Source: Escherichia phage JP4
Length of the DNA stretch: 64,000 bases
Strand: one strand, 5' to 3'
Sequence record: PQ330092
Shown: in pieces, positions 27,850 through 45,560 of the stretch
How positions within the stretch are numbered: position 1 is the stretch's first letter
Layout of the letters: every line of letters starts with the position of its first letter
Made by a program: the position numbers and the translations under genes
Notes under the pieces: model-generated
What the model saw: only the letters and a program-made list of their open reading frames with translations
Database searches by the model: none
What the model was told of the DNA's origin: nothing

Positions 27850-27914
27850 TTTTTCAGTACTGAATTTTGGGCGTAACTATGCACCCGGTGGGCTTGAGTC
27901 TTTCTCGACTTGAT
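27850..27914 (-). ncRNA. candidate box RNA (minus strand)
   Basis: Minus-strand promoter TTGCTT-16-TATAAT at 27921-27948; the transcript carries AGCCCACCGGGTGCATAGTTACGCCCAAAATTCA; no credible ORF. Confidence 0.3.
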
Positions 27915-28039
27915 GGAACTATTATACAGTACTGGAAAAATAAAGCAATACCCTGGATGAAAAAAGTTTTAATTAATTTGCTTGCCATCCTGGGCCGGAC
28001 TATGGTACTATATTTCAGTACTGAGAAAGTGCGTTTACC

Positions 28040-28129
28040 TGCTAGGGTGCGGGAGTGTATCCTTTTTTTATATCTTGAATTTTGGGCGTAATTCCGCACC
28101 CTCTGGGGTTTCCGCTTTCTCGCGTCTAT
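28040..28129 (-). ncRNA. candidate box RNA (minus strand), paralog of 27850..27914
   Basis: Minus-strand promoter TTGACT-16-TATAAT at 28136-28163; the transcript carries GGGTGCGGAATTACGCCCAAAATTCA and a 9-bp inverted repeat AGGGTGCGG/CCGCACCCT. Confidence 0.3.
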
Positions 28130-28315
28130 GTAGTAATTATACGCTTTTTCAGGATCAAGTCAATACCTAAAAACAAAATAATTGAAAATAATTTAACGCG
28201 TTTAAACGGCCTGTAAAGCCCTGGAATGATTGGAATGGTGCAAATGTATAGCTTATGTGTATTAATGCGTTAGAATGCGTCTGAGGCCGTTTTATGGGGT
28301 GTAGTAGTGATTTGG

Positions 28316-28408
28316 TTGATTCAGTACTGAATAATAGTACTCCTATATAGAAAGATAGTTCCCCTGGATTGATTCAGTACTGAATAATAGTACTCCTATA
28401 TAGAAAGA
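28316..28408. repeat. 40-bp exact direct repeat x2
   Basis: TTGATTCAGTACTGAATAATAGTACTCCTATATAGAAAGA at 28316-28355 and 28369-28408. Confidence 0.9.
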
Positions 28409-28439
28409 AAACTATTTTAAAAGTATTTGTAGAAAGTAC

Positions 28440-28499
28440 TTGCACCGTACTGATAAAAGCGTATAATGTTTTACATCGAGAGCGGGAACACTTCCCGCT
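28440..28499 (+). promoter_or_regulatory. early promoter with 5' hairpin, cassette 1 of 22
   Basis: TTGCAC-16-TATAAT, then AGCGGGAA-CAC-TTCCCGCT. Confidence 0.65.
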
Positions 28500-28522
28500 A
28501 CACATTAAGAGAGATTAAAACG

Positions 28523-28885
28523 ATGGCGACTCAAATCAATAAAATCATGCTTAACCTGGTAAACTTCCGCGAAGAGATGAAAGGTCTTCCGGCTGAAACT
28601 GTAAAAATTCACATTGCAGCTTATCGGGAACTTATTGCAATGTTGCCGCTTAAGCGTGAACAATACGCCGCTACTTTGATGCTTGATTCAATGATCCATA
28701 TAATGATCTCAAATGATTTAACGATGGTTTATCAGTACATGGGCGAAAATTTCGCGGTGTGTAGTAAGCCAGTACCAGGGATGGCAACTACTGAGGAATT
28801 GCACGGTTTAAATTTAAAGCAAGATGCATGGGATAATATGCCTCGTTTCCTGGTATGGGCTGACAGTGGCAAAATTTACAAATAA
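28523..28885 (+). CDS. hypothetical early protein (120 aa)
   Basis: Track ATG 28466 lies in the -10 (TATAATG); start moved to ATG 28523, downstream of the hairpin. Confidence 0.75.
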   Translation: MATQINKIMLNLVNFREEMKGLPAETVKIHIAAYRELIAMLPLKREQYAATLMLDSMIHIMISNDLTMVYQYMGENFAVCSKPVPGMATTEELHGLNLKQDAWDNMPRFLVWADSGKIYK

Positions 28886-28899
28886 GTTTAATAAAGTAC

Positions 28900-28958
28900 T
28901 TGCAAACTAAGTTTAAAAGCGTATAATGTTTTACATCAGGTGGGGAATAGTTCCCCAC
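28900..28958 (+). promoter_or_regulatory. early promoter with 5' hairpin, cassette 2
   Basis: TTGCAA-16-TATAAT, then GTGGGGAA-TAG-TTCCCCAC. Confidence 0.65.
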
Positions 28959-28977
28959 TATATAAGAGGATTAAAAA

Positions 28978-29217
28978 ATGGCTAAATCAAAAATGTTCTT
29001 AGGTCACAAAAACAAAACTCATTGGAATGTAAGCCTTTGGATTAATAACGATGAATCATTATACCGGTTGGCCCAGGACTTTATTAACGATAGCACTAAT
29101 CGCAATGATGCGGCCCGTCATATGATGTTATTTTTAGAACAGACTGGACAAGATAAAACACCGGACGGATTCAAATATAGCACTACTGCGATCCGTGCGG
29201 CGATGGTTGGAATGTAA
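28978..29217 (+). CDS. hypothetical early protein (79 aa)
   Basis: Track ORF; GAGGA SD; own cassette. Confidence 0.8.
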   Translation: MAKSKMFLGHKNKTHWNVSLWINNDESLYRLAQDFINDSTNRNDAARHMMLFLEQTGQDKTPDGFKYSTTAIRAAMVGM

Positions 29218-29305
29218 TAGAATAGAATTTATTTAAAGTACTATTGCACGCTGATAGTACTTTATAATAGTGTTTTATTCATACACCAACGATAAGGGCA
29301 ACAGC

Positions 29306-29572
29306 ATGAATATTAAGTATTTTGCGACGCGTGAACAAGCTCGGATCGCCGCACGCCAGGACGGGGCAACGTTTAAAGATATGGGCGTACAATCGGAACG
29401 TGGTAAACGTTGGGCCATTGTAAAGCGTAGTACCGCCAGATCATTACAGTACTGGTTAGCGGCCTTAAAAAGTCCCGATAGTGTATCGCGTCGAGTGGTA
29501 GAAATAAAGCTCGACCGAAAGGGCAACCGCGTGACCGTGTACCGTACTAAAAAGATTGCAGTACTTGAATAA
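29306..29572 (+). CDS. hypothetical early protein (88 aa), paralog of 41251..41646
   Basis: Trimmed to MNIKYFATREQARIAAR..KGKRWA..RKGNRVTVY, which aligns with the paralog's N-terminus. Confidence 0.7.
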   Translation: MNIKYFATREQARIAARQDGATFKDMGVQSERGKRWAIVKRSTARSLQYWLAALKSPDSVSRRVVEIKLDRKGNRVTVYRTKKIAVLE

Positions 29573-29579
29573 AAAGTAC

Positions 29580-29638
29580 TTGCAAACTATGTTTAAAGGC
29601 GTATAATGTTTTACATCGAGAGCGGGAACTCTTCCCGC
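29580..29638 (+). promoter_or_regulatory. early promoter with 5' hairpin, cassette 3
   Basis: TTGCAA-16-TATAAT, then GCGGGAA-CTC-TTCCCGC. Confidence 0.65.
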
Positions 29639-29659
29639 CTATAACCTGGAGTAATAAAA

Positions 29660-44147: not shown

Positions 44148-44208
44148 TTGCATTGTAGTTAGATTAACGTATAATGTTTTACATAGAGCGGGGGAATAGT
44201 TCTCCCGC
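44148..44208 (+). promoter_or_regulatory. early promoter with 5' hairpin, cassette 19
   Basis: TTGCAT-16-TATAAT, then GCGGGGGAA-TAG-TTCTCCCGC. Confidence 0.65.
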
Positions 44209-44226
44209 CAGTCCAGGAGATACACC

Positions 44227-44490
44227 ATGAACACTATCGAAATCACTATCAATGCACACGTATACGACAACGTAGTACTGCAAACTACTATGACCGCTAA
44301 TGATACCAGTACTTTGCGGAATACTGTTATTAGTGCCGTATGTGCTGCAATCGGTGATGTCGCCCTGGAAAATGCAAAACACGTAAACGATGGTTTCACT
44401 ATGTGCAAACGTGATAACGCAAAACATATCATCGTAGAAGGTTACGGCGGTGTAGAATATAATGTTTATATGAAAAAAGTACTTGCATAA
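44227..44490 (+). CDS. hypothetical early protein (87 aa)
   Basis: Track ORF; the C-terminal KKVLA* is encoded by the next cassette (AAAAAAGTACTTGCATAA). Confidence 0.8.
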   Translation: MNTIEITINAHVYDNVVLQTTMTANDTSTLRNTVISAVCAAIGDVALENAKHVNDGFTMCKRDNAKHIIVEGYGGVEYNVYMKKVLA

Positions 44491-44539
44491 TAACTAAAAC
44501 AAAGTATAATGTTTTGCATAGGGGGAGATATCCTCCCCC
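44483..44539 (+). promoter_or_regulatory. early promoter with 5' hairpin, cassette 20
   Basis: TTGCAT-16-TATAAT, then GGGGGAG-ATATC-CTCCCCC. Confidence 0.65.
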
Positions 44540-44557
44540 ACTAAAAGGAGTAATAAA

Positions 44558-44782
44558 ATGGCTAACTTTGATGAACTGATGCGGGAAGTAGCTAACCTGG
44601 CAGAAGAGAAGAAATCATTCGATTCTATCTATAACACCGCTCACCGTGATTCAGTACTGGCATGTAACCAGGATCAAAAAGATGAACTAATCGCCACCTA
44701 TCATGAAGCATGGAAGTACTACCGACAATGGGAGAAAGAAGAAAGAGAGTCTACCATTGACGGCCTCAATAATCTAATCTAA
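44558..44782 (+). CDS. hypothetical early protein (74 aa)
   Basis: Track ORF; AAGGAG SD. Confidence 0.8.
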   Translation: MANFDELMREVANLAEEKKSFDSIYNTAHRDSVLACNQDQKDELIATYHEAWKYYRQWEKEERESTIDGLNNLI

Positions 44783-44801
44783 AAGTTTTATTTCAGTACT
44801 A

Positions 44802-44830
44802 TTGACATAGCTTGATAGTACTGATGTAAT
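44802..44830 (+). promoter_or_regulatory. sigma70-type promoter (no hairpin)
   Basis: TTGACA-17-TGTAAT. Confidence 0.5.
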
Positions 44831-44858
44831 AACTTTACTAACTACAAGGGGAAACATA

Positions 44859-45116
44859 ATGGAACAGTTCACACAATATCGGGTAAATCCTCAAGCGATG
44901 GCCTACGTAGAAGACCATAAAACGTTACCAGTACTAACACCAATTAAAGGCCATATCTATCGTGCAATGTCGTGGTGTACGGCCCAGGATGGCTATAAAA
45001 CCGTAGCCGTTGGTATGTATTGCGGTAATGGTGAATGGTTTGATCCAAATAATCCGGTAGCCATTGACAGTACTGAAAAAATGAAATGGGCCGACTACAT
45101 CGAAGATATTTCATAA
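44859..45116 (+). CDS. hypothetical early protein (85 aa)
   Basis: Track ORF; GGGGA SD. Confidence 0.8.
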   Translation: MEQFTQYRVNPQAMAYVEDHKTLPVLTPIKGHIYRAMSWCTAQDGYKTVAVGMYCGNGEWFDPNNPVAIDSTEKMKWADYIEDIS

Positions 45117-45122
45117 AACTAT

Positions 45123-45183
45123 TTGACAGTACTAACCAGTAATGTATAATGTTTTACATAGAGCGGGGGAATAGTTCTCCCGC
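45123..45183 (+). promoter_or_regulatory. early promoter with 5' hairpin, cassette 21
   Basis: TTGACA-16-TATAAT, then GCGGGGGAA-TAG-TTCTCCCGC (same hairpin as cassette 19). Confidence 0.65.
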
Positions 45184-45205
45184 CAATAGTTTGGAGTAAA
45201 ATATT

Positions 45206-45406
45206 ATGTCTATCGCTCTCGCCCTGGTTGAAGTACTGAAAGAAGCTAAAGCCAACCTTATCGATGTACAGATTAAGGAATTGCAAAACGGCTTAATCGG
45301 CTGTACTTGTACCGCTGGCGGTGCGGCAGACTATCGAGAACACGAATCACTCGAATCACTGGTTCGGTATCTTACCATGATCGTTGATGATTGGAGAATC
45401 ATCTAA
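45206..45406 (+). CDS. hypothetical early protein (66 aa)
   Basis: Track ORF; GGAG SD. Confidence 0.8.
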   Translation: MSIALALVEVLKEAKANLIDVQIKELQNGLIGCTCTAGGAADYREHESLESLVRYLTMIVDDWRII

Positions 45407-45423
45407 CAAAAAAGAATAAAAAA

Positions 45424-45456
45424 AGGGATTGACTCCGGTCAGTCCCTTTGCTATTA
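45424..45456 (+). promoter_or_regulatory. terminator/promoter hybrid hairpin
   Basis: GGGATTGAC-TCCG-GTCAGTCCC then T3; TTGACT 45428-33, 17-bp spacer, TATTAT 45451-56. Confidence 0.65.
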
Positions 45457-45462
45457 TATACG

Positions 45463-45560
45463 CATAGACAAAAACTAGCCCACAGGGTGCATAGGTGTAT
45501 CTAAAATATATAGTTAATAACGGTGAGTAACTATCTGCTGGTGGAACTAAAACTATTAAT
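45463..45560 (+). ncRNA. candidate orphan box transcript
   Basis: Box TAGCCCACAGGGTGCATAGGTGTATCTAAA at 45477-503, Chi at 45536-43; no ORF. Confidence 0.35.

Follow-up and report, generated by a model that had tools for sequence, protein, structure and literature searches.

A promoter-proximal structured RNA element repeated in the terminal repeats of Rak2-like jumbo phages

Multi-copy small RNA families and sponges such as Qrr1-5 and CsrB/RsmY/Z carry an invariant motif on variable scaffolds and are transcribed from their own promoters without an open reading frame (ORF). At phage early promoters, the put RNA is an element of ~70 nt with two hairpins placed just downstream of the promoter (PMC9378689). 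The sequence analyzed here is a stretch of 64,000 nucleotides from Escherichia phage JP4 (record PQ330092), termed the window, in which an earlier note made from the letters alone had pointed out a short conserved box lying in both orientations behind strong promoters. The box units form an undescribed family of promoter-proximal structured RNAs that is specific to the Rak2-like jumbo phages and occurs in about ten copies per direct terminal repeat (DTR) of ~20 kb, the early region of these genomes.

A search of Rfam 15 with positions 26000-47500 at E<=1 returns only mir-1000 and Trp_leader, both far below threshold and neither located on a box, and in the searchable literature the 12-nucleotide core is found only in unrelated primers, in agreement with the view of the earlier note that no described element has this sequence. 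A scan of the window for tRNA and tmRNA genes finds none.

Recurrence of the box core in the window and in related phages

The core CCCAYAGGGTGC, allowing up to one mismatch, is present at 19 sites in the window compared with 0.17 expected, and none of 100 shuffled sequences reaches 19. These sites comprise ten in the first copy of a long repeat and nine duplicates in the second, with the tenth duplicate placed beyond the window end. The cores start at 29975, 35937, 37595, 39952, 43226, and 45479 on the + strand and at 27881, 28096, 30032, and 31564 on the - strand. No core site is found in 1-26791 either by pattern search or with a covariance model run with filters off, and over the whole window the same model identifies exactly the ten sites and their duplicates with nothing more at E<=1. 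The box positions given in the earlier note agree with these to within a few bases, its starts having included 2-4 flanking bases, and the minus-strand copy that it placed at 30042 is the one with the core at 30032-30043. The copy at 28042 that it called partial is a real variant (28038-28070), and the flanks that it described as shared between 37573(+) and 31597(-) and between 37591(+) and 30056(-) are also real.

The window belongs to Asteriusvirus, a genus of jumbo coliphages, as judged by BLAST, with 22000-27500 being 99.3% identical to vB_EcoM_E9.1, where the counterpart of this segment stops ~20.1 kb short of the record end. An offset comparison shows that 26792-46905 is identical to the stretch from 46906 to the window end (period 20,114 bp, 100%), and every box copy therefore recurs exactly at +20,114. 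The repeated part aligns (BLAST) with the first ~14-20 kb of E9.1, fEgEco12, and vB_Ec-M-J. The vB_Ec-M-J record has an annotated DTR of 21,525 bp, and the fEgEco12 repeat of 20,993 bp has been confirmed by restriction digests (PMC13070987). From its position and these matches the repeat in the window is therefore the DTR, with the right copy joined to the left copy. The genes annotated in the vB_Ec-M-J DTR are all small, on the + strand and of unknown function, and the first 1.7 kb is free of genes.

Scanning IMG/VR for CCCANNGGGTGCNNNNNTGTA gives multiple matches in RaK2 (345,809 bp), GAP32 (358,663 bp), CBB (378,379 bp), 121Q (348,532 bp), and fHe-Yen9-04 (354,378 bp) as well as in several metagenomic contigs of 355-366 kb. 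In each of these five phages and in four metagenomic jumbo contigs the matches are confined to one stretch of 15-25 kb out of ~350 kb, and in CBB they are located in both terminal repeats. A promoter on the same strand precedes every match in the jumbo genomes, whereas in the non-jumbo IMG/VR contigs serving as a negative control 70 of the 76 matches have no promoter; among the other six, five fall in short fragments from the same phage group and the last is chance-like. Broader IMG/VR scans give, among the matches listed, mostly chance occurrences, together with one extra RaK2 match outside the cluster that has no promoter or family features. After relaxed searches the family comprises ~115 distinct copies.

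The Klebsiella phage fENko-Kae01, from another genus cluster, has a record annotating a 19,736-bp repeat identified with PhageTerm, and its ten copies, four of them on the minus strand, all fall within 1-19,736 with no box copy at 19.7-23 kb. In both fENko-Kae01 and the window the leftward copies lie toward the left of the repeat and the rightward copies toward its right. The covariance model was trained on 45 copies and recovers another 40 at loci outside its training set, and a model untrained on fENko-Kae01 detects nine of its copies at E<1e-4. The family, which the earlier note had described from the window, extends across a whole phage group. CBB has only 33-38% of its proteins in common with the coliphages (PMC5259590), and the 12-mer is identical in CBB and the coliphages. 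The 121Q orthologue of the unit at 29975 keeps the promoter, core, and 3' flank and has the 5' leader TATTGAAACGAACAATTTGG instead of CATTGGCAGATAAGCCGTAG, indicating mosaic exchange between copies.

Promoters and predicted structure of the transcripts

Every copy in the window is preceded by a -35 element resembling TTGACA/TTGACT, a spacer of 16-17 bp, a sigma70 -10 element, and a conserved CAT at the expected start site. The -10 ends 21-28 nt before the CCC of the core on the strand of the copy in every case, in accordance with the 20-30 nt reported in the earlier note, and the four copies that it placed behind terminator/promoter hybrids are those with hairpins at 35875, 39895, 43164, and 45422, where the hairpin holds the -35 and the T-rich -10 region comes after it. 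Across the family, promoters scoring at least 9/12 at the right distance are found for 106 of 115 distinct copies; of these, 102 have a 17-18 bp spacer and 74 are TG-extended, with the -10 being mostly TATTAT, CATAAT, or TATACT. Promoters proximal to the genes of this region differ in having a 16-bp spacer, a perfect TATAAT, and no TG. The distance from promoter to core ranges from 20 to 30 nt without helical phasing and is bimodal (21-22 versus 25-28 nt) because a short subclass (CAUAGAAACAAAUCAG) lacks the hairpin that otherwise lies between the start site and the core.

This 5' hairpin is formed in 30 of 40 distinct leaders, with a summed energy of -110 kcal/mol compared with -24 +/- 6 in shuffles, and it occurs in 25 distinct stem/loop versions, several of which contain G-U pairs. 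The stems include GGC/GCC, GAG/CUC, AGCA/UGCU, GACA/UGUC, CGC/GCG, CCAC/GUGG, and ACCG/CGGU, and the loops are purine-rich (AGAUAA, AGAACAA, GCGAAA, GAGAAA). Since a sequence alignment (MAFFT) does not bring the 5' hairpins into register, RNAalifold returns the core hairpin alone, and the 5' hairpins were assessed by folding against shuffles. The core hairpin R-CCC-N3/4-GGG-U has constant CCC and GGG, save for one CBB copy with the double change CCU...AGG, and is closed by a G-U pair in 32 copies and an A-U pair in 20. A four-base loop (CCC-N4-GGG) is found in 13 copies, and in the folding ensemble of whole leaders the core hairpin has a mean probability of 0.62. The 5' hairpin and the core hairpin are present together in about three quarters of the distinct leaders, the 5' hairpin being missing in the rest.

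The bases after the core follow the pattern GC-R-NNNN-U-G-Y-R-Y-C-Y, in which UGYRYCY can pair with GGGUGC(R). For GGGUGCR/UGYRYCY, 88-91% of cells are paired compared with 30-69% when the partner is slid, and the variation changes G-U to G-C, U-A to U-G, or G-U to A-U, a pair being preserved in every change; copies with a changed C12 have a compensating partner in four of eight cases. The many G-U pairs mean that these structures exist only in the transcribed strand, which fits RNA and not duplex DNA. Further pairings were considered and rejected. An outer helix around the core hairpin (-6..-3 with +15..+18) has 58% of cells paired, no better than shuffles, and both a closing stem 5' AUAGA/3' UCUAU and a pseudoknot between the loop and the 3' segment (AGAUA:UAUCU) fit some subclasses by eye and not others.

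No ORF intervenes between the box and the next promoter in any of the six + strand copies, as the earlier note had stated; that promoter lies within 60-100 nt and is followed by a ribosome-binding site and an ORF. These copies are the distal members of tandem promoters, and transcription from them would continue past the gene's own promoter and into the gene, with the box as 5' leader. The four minus copies in the window face no gene, and in both Asteriusvirus and fENko-Kae01 the annotated DTR genes are all on the + strand, yet four of ten box copies are opposed to them. Convergent box pairs 68-88 nt apart are also present in CBB, GAP32, 121Q, fENko-Kae01, fHe-Yen9-04, and metagenomic contigs.

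The layout of promoter, box, and terminator with no ORF seen at 31632->31495(-) is that of a stand-alone small RNA gene and recurs as a subclass in RaK2, fENko-Kae01, and metagenomic contigs, the terminator stem of this subclass ending 70-76 nt past the core. With strict criteria, 11 of 104 copies have a strong hairpin followed by a U-rich tail at this distance, versus 3.6% at random positions, and lenient criteria add further terminated copies with imperfect stems. The segment downstream of the box is AU-rich, with ~3.1 U in the 8 nt after the second hairpin and no U-tract in most copies. A general intrinsic terminator or attenuator directly after the box was rejected; only the 28038 variant and a few GAP32 and CBB copies fit, the consensus past the hairpin being AUWRUAUA.

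Box units and their setting in the terminal repeat

Table 1. Coordinates of the terminal repeat and of the box units in the window
Feature	Position	Strand	Composition
Direct terminal repeat, copy 1	26792..46905	.	20,114 bp; houses every box unit; copy 2 from 46906, exact, runs off the window
Box unit	27857..27948	-	promoter TTGCTT-16-TATAAT (27921-27948); RNA element 27914->27857; core 27892->27881; 40.4 bits, E 1e-6; 3' hexamer ACGCCC; directed to left end of repeat
Variant "half box"	28038..28070	+	CCT-GCTA-GGGTGC-GGGAGT-GTATCC + T7; convergent with the 28107(-) copy; GGGTGC/GTATCC hairpin and T-run score as intrinsic terminator
Box unit	28072..28163	-	promoter 28163->28136; RNA element 28129->28072; core 28107->28096, loop AGA; directed to left end of repeat
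Box unit	29921..30010	+	promoter 29921-29949 (TG-extended -10); RNA element 29955-30010; core 29975-29986; 57 bits
Box unit	30008..30093	-	perfect promoter 30093->30065; RNA element 30065->30008; core 30043->30032; no 5' hairpin; convergent with 29975(+), cores 68 nt apart
Stand-alone unit	31495..31632	-	promoter 31632->31604; RNA element 31597->31540; core 31575->31564; bidirectional terminator 31523->31503, ~50 nt past core; predicted RNA ~100 nt, no ORF; kept in vB_Ec-M-J
Terminator/promoter hybrid + box	35875..35972	+	hairpin 35875-35902 contains -35; RNA element 35916-35972; core 35937-35948; then gene promoter 36004
Box unit	37538..37630	+	promoter 37538-37566; RNA element 37573-37630; core 37595-37606; then promoter 37654
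Terminator/promoter hybrid + box	39895..39987	+	RNA element 39930-39987; core 39952-39963; Chi at 39983
Terminator/promoter hybrid + box	43164..43261	+	RNA element 43205-43261; core 43226-43237; 59 bits
Terminator/promoter hybrid + box	45422..45514	+	RNA element 45457-45514; core 45479-45490; Chi at 45537
Exact duplicates of 9 of the 10 units, DTR copy 2	47971..63375	.	each coordinate +20,114

Directly 5' of the right terminal repeat, the region 21737-26528 (+) is occupied by ~25 back-to-back ATG-start ORFs of 59-81 amino acids, with a longer TTG-start ORF of 229 amino acids located among them (23740-24429). Inside the repeat a perfect consensus promoter at 27157 (+) opens a stretch of ~900 nt with no annotated gene, extending to 28070 and closing at the box-derived terminator (28044-28070). 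The stretch from 27157 is convergent with two leftward box promoters, which would lead to transcription of both strands over the terminal 1.3 kb.

A second leader family is associated with the small genes of the repeat, nearly every one of which has its own TATAAT promoter with a 16-bp spacer (28900, 29580, 30943, 31198, 33604, 35188, 35417, 36004, 36439, 39168, 40748, 43599, and 45123). The predicted transcripts begin with ACAUCAAGGGGAG-loop-CUCCCCACUA placed right before the ribosome-binding site, and the stems vary in a compensatory way (GCGGGA/UCCCGC, GGGGAA/UUCCCC). Another conserved non-coding leader lies between tandem promoters at 30170-30258 and ~40050-40137 (+), ending in ...ACGAAAAACTCCCCTGATAAAA and carrying a GGGGAAC...CCCCG hairpin.

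The palindrome AGTACT is strongly over-represented, with 133 occurrences versus 6.5 expected in the 20-kb repeat and 105 versus 9 expected in 1-26791, and fENko-Kae01 has 126 copies in 23 kb. It is located directly upstream of -35 and -10 hexamers and also after many boxes. CAGTACTG is counted 33 times in the repeat and 18 times in 1-26791. Escherichia coli Chi sites (GCTGGTGG) are biased in the repeat, with eight on the + strand (27381, 33212, 37252, 38715, 39983, 42331, 43737, and 45537) versus two on the - strand (27369 and 33150), and no + strand site is present in 1-26791. The bias in fENko-Kae01 is alike (12 versus 2), and an opposed Chi pair lies ~580 bp from the left end of the repeat, with the corresponding pair of fENko-Kae01 at 484/496. 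This arrangement suggests that the genome ends are shielded from RecBCD. In other phages Chi is also found inside the promoter spacer of several box promoters.

Possible functions and relation to known elements

The repetition beyond chance, the linkage to promoters, the restriction to one genome region, the RNA-type covariation, and the lack of an ORF make it very probable that the box is a selected element acting at the RNA level. The sigma70 RNA polymerase of the host would transcribe each copy from a separate promoter, in which the spacer is usually 17-18 bp and the -10 is TG-extended with an imperfect hexamer, and the predicted RNA begins at the A of the conserved CAT. The short variable 5' hairpin would come next in most copies, being absent in some, followed by U-A-R, the invariant hairpin CCC-N3/4-GGG-U, and GC, and then by 4-6 mostly purine bases and U-G-Y-R-Y-C-Y, the last segment being able to pair with GGGUGC in place of CCC/GGG. 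The terminated stand-alone copies, the copies opposed to all genes, the high copy number, and the strong promoters suggest that the RNA itself is the functional product, with some copies being stand-alone genes for terminated RNAs of ~100 nt and the remainder placing the module at the start of longer early RNAs. The hairpin, being invariant, may be what a highly conserved partner recognizes, whether this is a factor of the host or a core factor of the phage. Numerous and strongly transcribed, the copies would bind, titrate, or recruit this partner within the first minutes of infection, and the 5' hairpin would mainly shield the 5' end. This trans-acting mechanism of binding and titration is put forward tentatively, at somewhat under an even chance. 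A bolder form of it, quite unlikely as it stands, is an early decoy flood from ~twenty gene copies per genome, with promoters among the strongest that the phage has, in which the hairpin captures a conserved enterobacterial RNA-binding factor or an RNA-sensing defence nuclease as infection begins and the 3' pairing controls exposure of CCCAYA; if true, the box RNAs would be a new class of phage counter-host RNA common to a whole jumbo phage group.

Several observations weigh against an RNA product acting in trans. The terminator is missing in most copies, which are therefore not classical small-RNA genes. The core is nearly without covariation because it is invariant, leaving the support for its hairpin mainly to the loop-length variants and the one double change, and the evidence for the 3' pairing is one-sided because its 5' arm is nearly invariant. 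The 3' and core hairpins compete, and the former is in the minority, with a mean probability of 0.14 and a probability above 0.5 in 11 of 84 copies. Start sites, 3' ends, and RNA stability are all predictions, and the partner is likewise hypothetical. Finally, with the element so near the start site, an action in cis on the polymerase that transcribes it is equally conceivable. Of the two possibilities raised in the earlier note, a family of short noncoding RNAs holds at least for the subset of discrete promoter-to-terminator units of ~100 nt and not for most + strand copies, which have no terminator; for a protein-binding box, a plain double-stranded DNA site is disfavored by the RNA-type covariation, and protein binding and decoy transcripts remain conjectural.

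The main rival, improbable on balance but to be taken seriously, is a regulator acting in cis from the nascent RNA on host RNA polymerase, whether by put-like anti-pausing and antitermination or as an attenuator with competing hairpins. It would account for an element that never lies more than ~50 nt from the start site and is invariably oriented with transcription, for the GGG common to both candidate hairpins (CCC/GGG and GGGUGC/GYRYCY), and for a core invariant across host genera, which fits a partner as conserved as RNA polymerase; in the 28038 variant and the few GAP32 and CBB copies the second hairpin and the ensuing T-run score as a terminator, and the put RNA, ~70 nt with two hairpins at a phage early promoter, is a precedent (PMC9378689). 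However, a terminator ~50 nt past some copies would be senseless for an antiterminator, the shortage of U after the second hairpin argues that most copies are not attenuators, and the downstream genes have their own promoters while four of ten copies face no gene. A module that stabilizes or processes the 5' end, with hairpins shielding the triphosphate end from RppH and RNase E or with an AU-rich processing site, is a distinctly weaker candidate. Nearly all early transcripts of the repeat are predicted to open with a hairpin within 2-5 nt of the start, in the box leaders and in the GGGGAG...CTCCCC gene leaders alike, and the segment after the box is AU-rich, but a stem would suffice for this purpose with no need for an invariant 12-mer across genera, the gene-proximal promoters use a different and simpler hairpin, and stabilization would be pointless in copies with no downstream gene.

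A DNA-level site appears very unlikely, either as an operator or roadblock for a phage regulator on the duplex or as a hairpin of the non-template strand in the transcription bubble, as RfaH reads ops. The invariant 12-mer with its CCC-N3-GGG palindrome at +16 to +35 and its fixed orientation to the promoter would suit such a site, whereas the tolerated one-base insertion in the middle (CCC-N4-GGG), the unphased promoter distance of 20 to 30 nt, the flanks that co-vary in RNA fashion with G-U pairs, and the lack of an ops-like sequence would not. In T4 the origins oriF and oriG consist of a promoter with a downstream AT-rich unwinding element, and an R-loop primes leading-strand synthesis. A similar persistent R-loop at the box promoters, with opposed copies firing replication out of the two terminal repeats, would follow this established precedent and agree with the G-cluster preceding very AT-rich DNA and with copies in both orientations irrespective of genes, leftward on the left and rightward on the right in the window and fENko-Kae01. 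It is nevertheless held to be slightly less likely still than a DNA site, since terminated copies cannot prime, conserved hairpins are not required for an R-loop, and ten origins in 20 kb would be unusual. Least likely of all is that the box has no function and owes its conservation solely to gene conversion or shuffling among PeSL-like cassettes. Four copies do lie within promoter/stem-loop cassettes like the PeSLs of T4-type phages (PMC2839356, PMC4122927), and the exchanged 5' leader of the orthologous copy in 121Q points the same way, but gene conversion cannot hold a 12-mer invariant across genera with about one third of proteins in common (PMC5259590) while adjacent bases vary and co-vary. 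The stabilizer, the DNA operator, the R-loop primer, and the recombination cassette each explain parts of the data but account for less of them.

The Rak2-like jumbo phages (Asteriusvirus, RaK2, GAP32, CBB, and others) are under development for therapy, and their early program is a blank, with hundreds of tiny genes of no known function. The box is the most conserved non-coding feature of the DNA that these phages express first, invariant across phages of Escherichia, Klebsiella, Cronobacter, Pectobacterium, and Yersinia, and it provides a concrete, small, and mutable handle on host takeover or evasion. It is a candidate new RNA family with a covariance model at hand, and it shows the 20-kb terminal repeats to be organized around recurrent RNA modules and not genes alone.

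Several known elements were compared with the box and rejected. For a tmRNA mimic, the family model gives a best score of 5 bits (E>3) on E. coli ssrA, and a suspected resemblance to AACCCAAGGUGCAU was not confirmed. No approximate boxA of a nut/rrn antitermination site (CGCTCTTA / GCTCTTTAACAA) is located in or beside any box leader, and no match to RfaH ops (GGCGGTAGCGTG) is found in the window at up to two mismatches. The T7 class II pause signal (ATCTGTT) has exact matches in the window, none of them in the box units or their 3' segments; we know of no T7-type polymerase in these phages. A CsrA sponge is not supported, since about half of the copies have no GGA in the loop.

The HK022 put RNAs (putL/putR) resemble the box as nascent RNAs of ~60-70 nt with two stem-loops behind strong early promoters of the host RNA polymerase (PMC9378689). 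They occur in two copies versus about ten per repeat, no sequence relation was found, and unlike put some box copies directly precede terminators and many face no gene. In position and size, put is by analogy probably the nearest functional counterpart of the box. The lambda nut site (boxA + boxB) and the rrn leaders share with the box a small GC-stem hairpin in an early transcript leader, but the box has no adjoining boxA and its loop is variable and of 3-4 nt, not a GNRA-like pentaloop. To our knowledge, no N-like protein is present in these phages. RfaH ops is also an invariant, orientation-specific leader element of 12 nt able to form a tiny hairpin, although the box sequence is different and its flanking covariation is RNA-like.

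The PeSL cassettes of T4-type phages, like the box hybrids, join a stem-loop terminator to a strong early promoter of the sigma70 type (PMC2839356, PMC4122927), and both kinds of cassette are repeated among small unknown genes with a mosaic distribution. This combination is found in four of the ten units (35875, 39895, 43164, and 45422) with no such hairpin in the other six, and whereas a PeSL finishes with the Shine-Dalgarno sequence and start codon of the gene downstream, each box unit runs into a second promoter or a terminator ahead of any ORF. The box units carry in addition the invariant transcribed element, and the box lies outside the published description of PeSLs. Qrr1-5 and CsrB/RsmY/Z are similar in having several paralogous copies with one invariant motif, an own promoter, and no ORF; unlike these, most box copies have no terminator of their own and no GGA repeat. 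Judged from its sequence, the box would be a new RNA family of a known general kind, that of the phage leaders or small RNAs.

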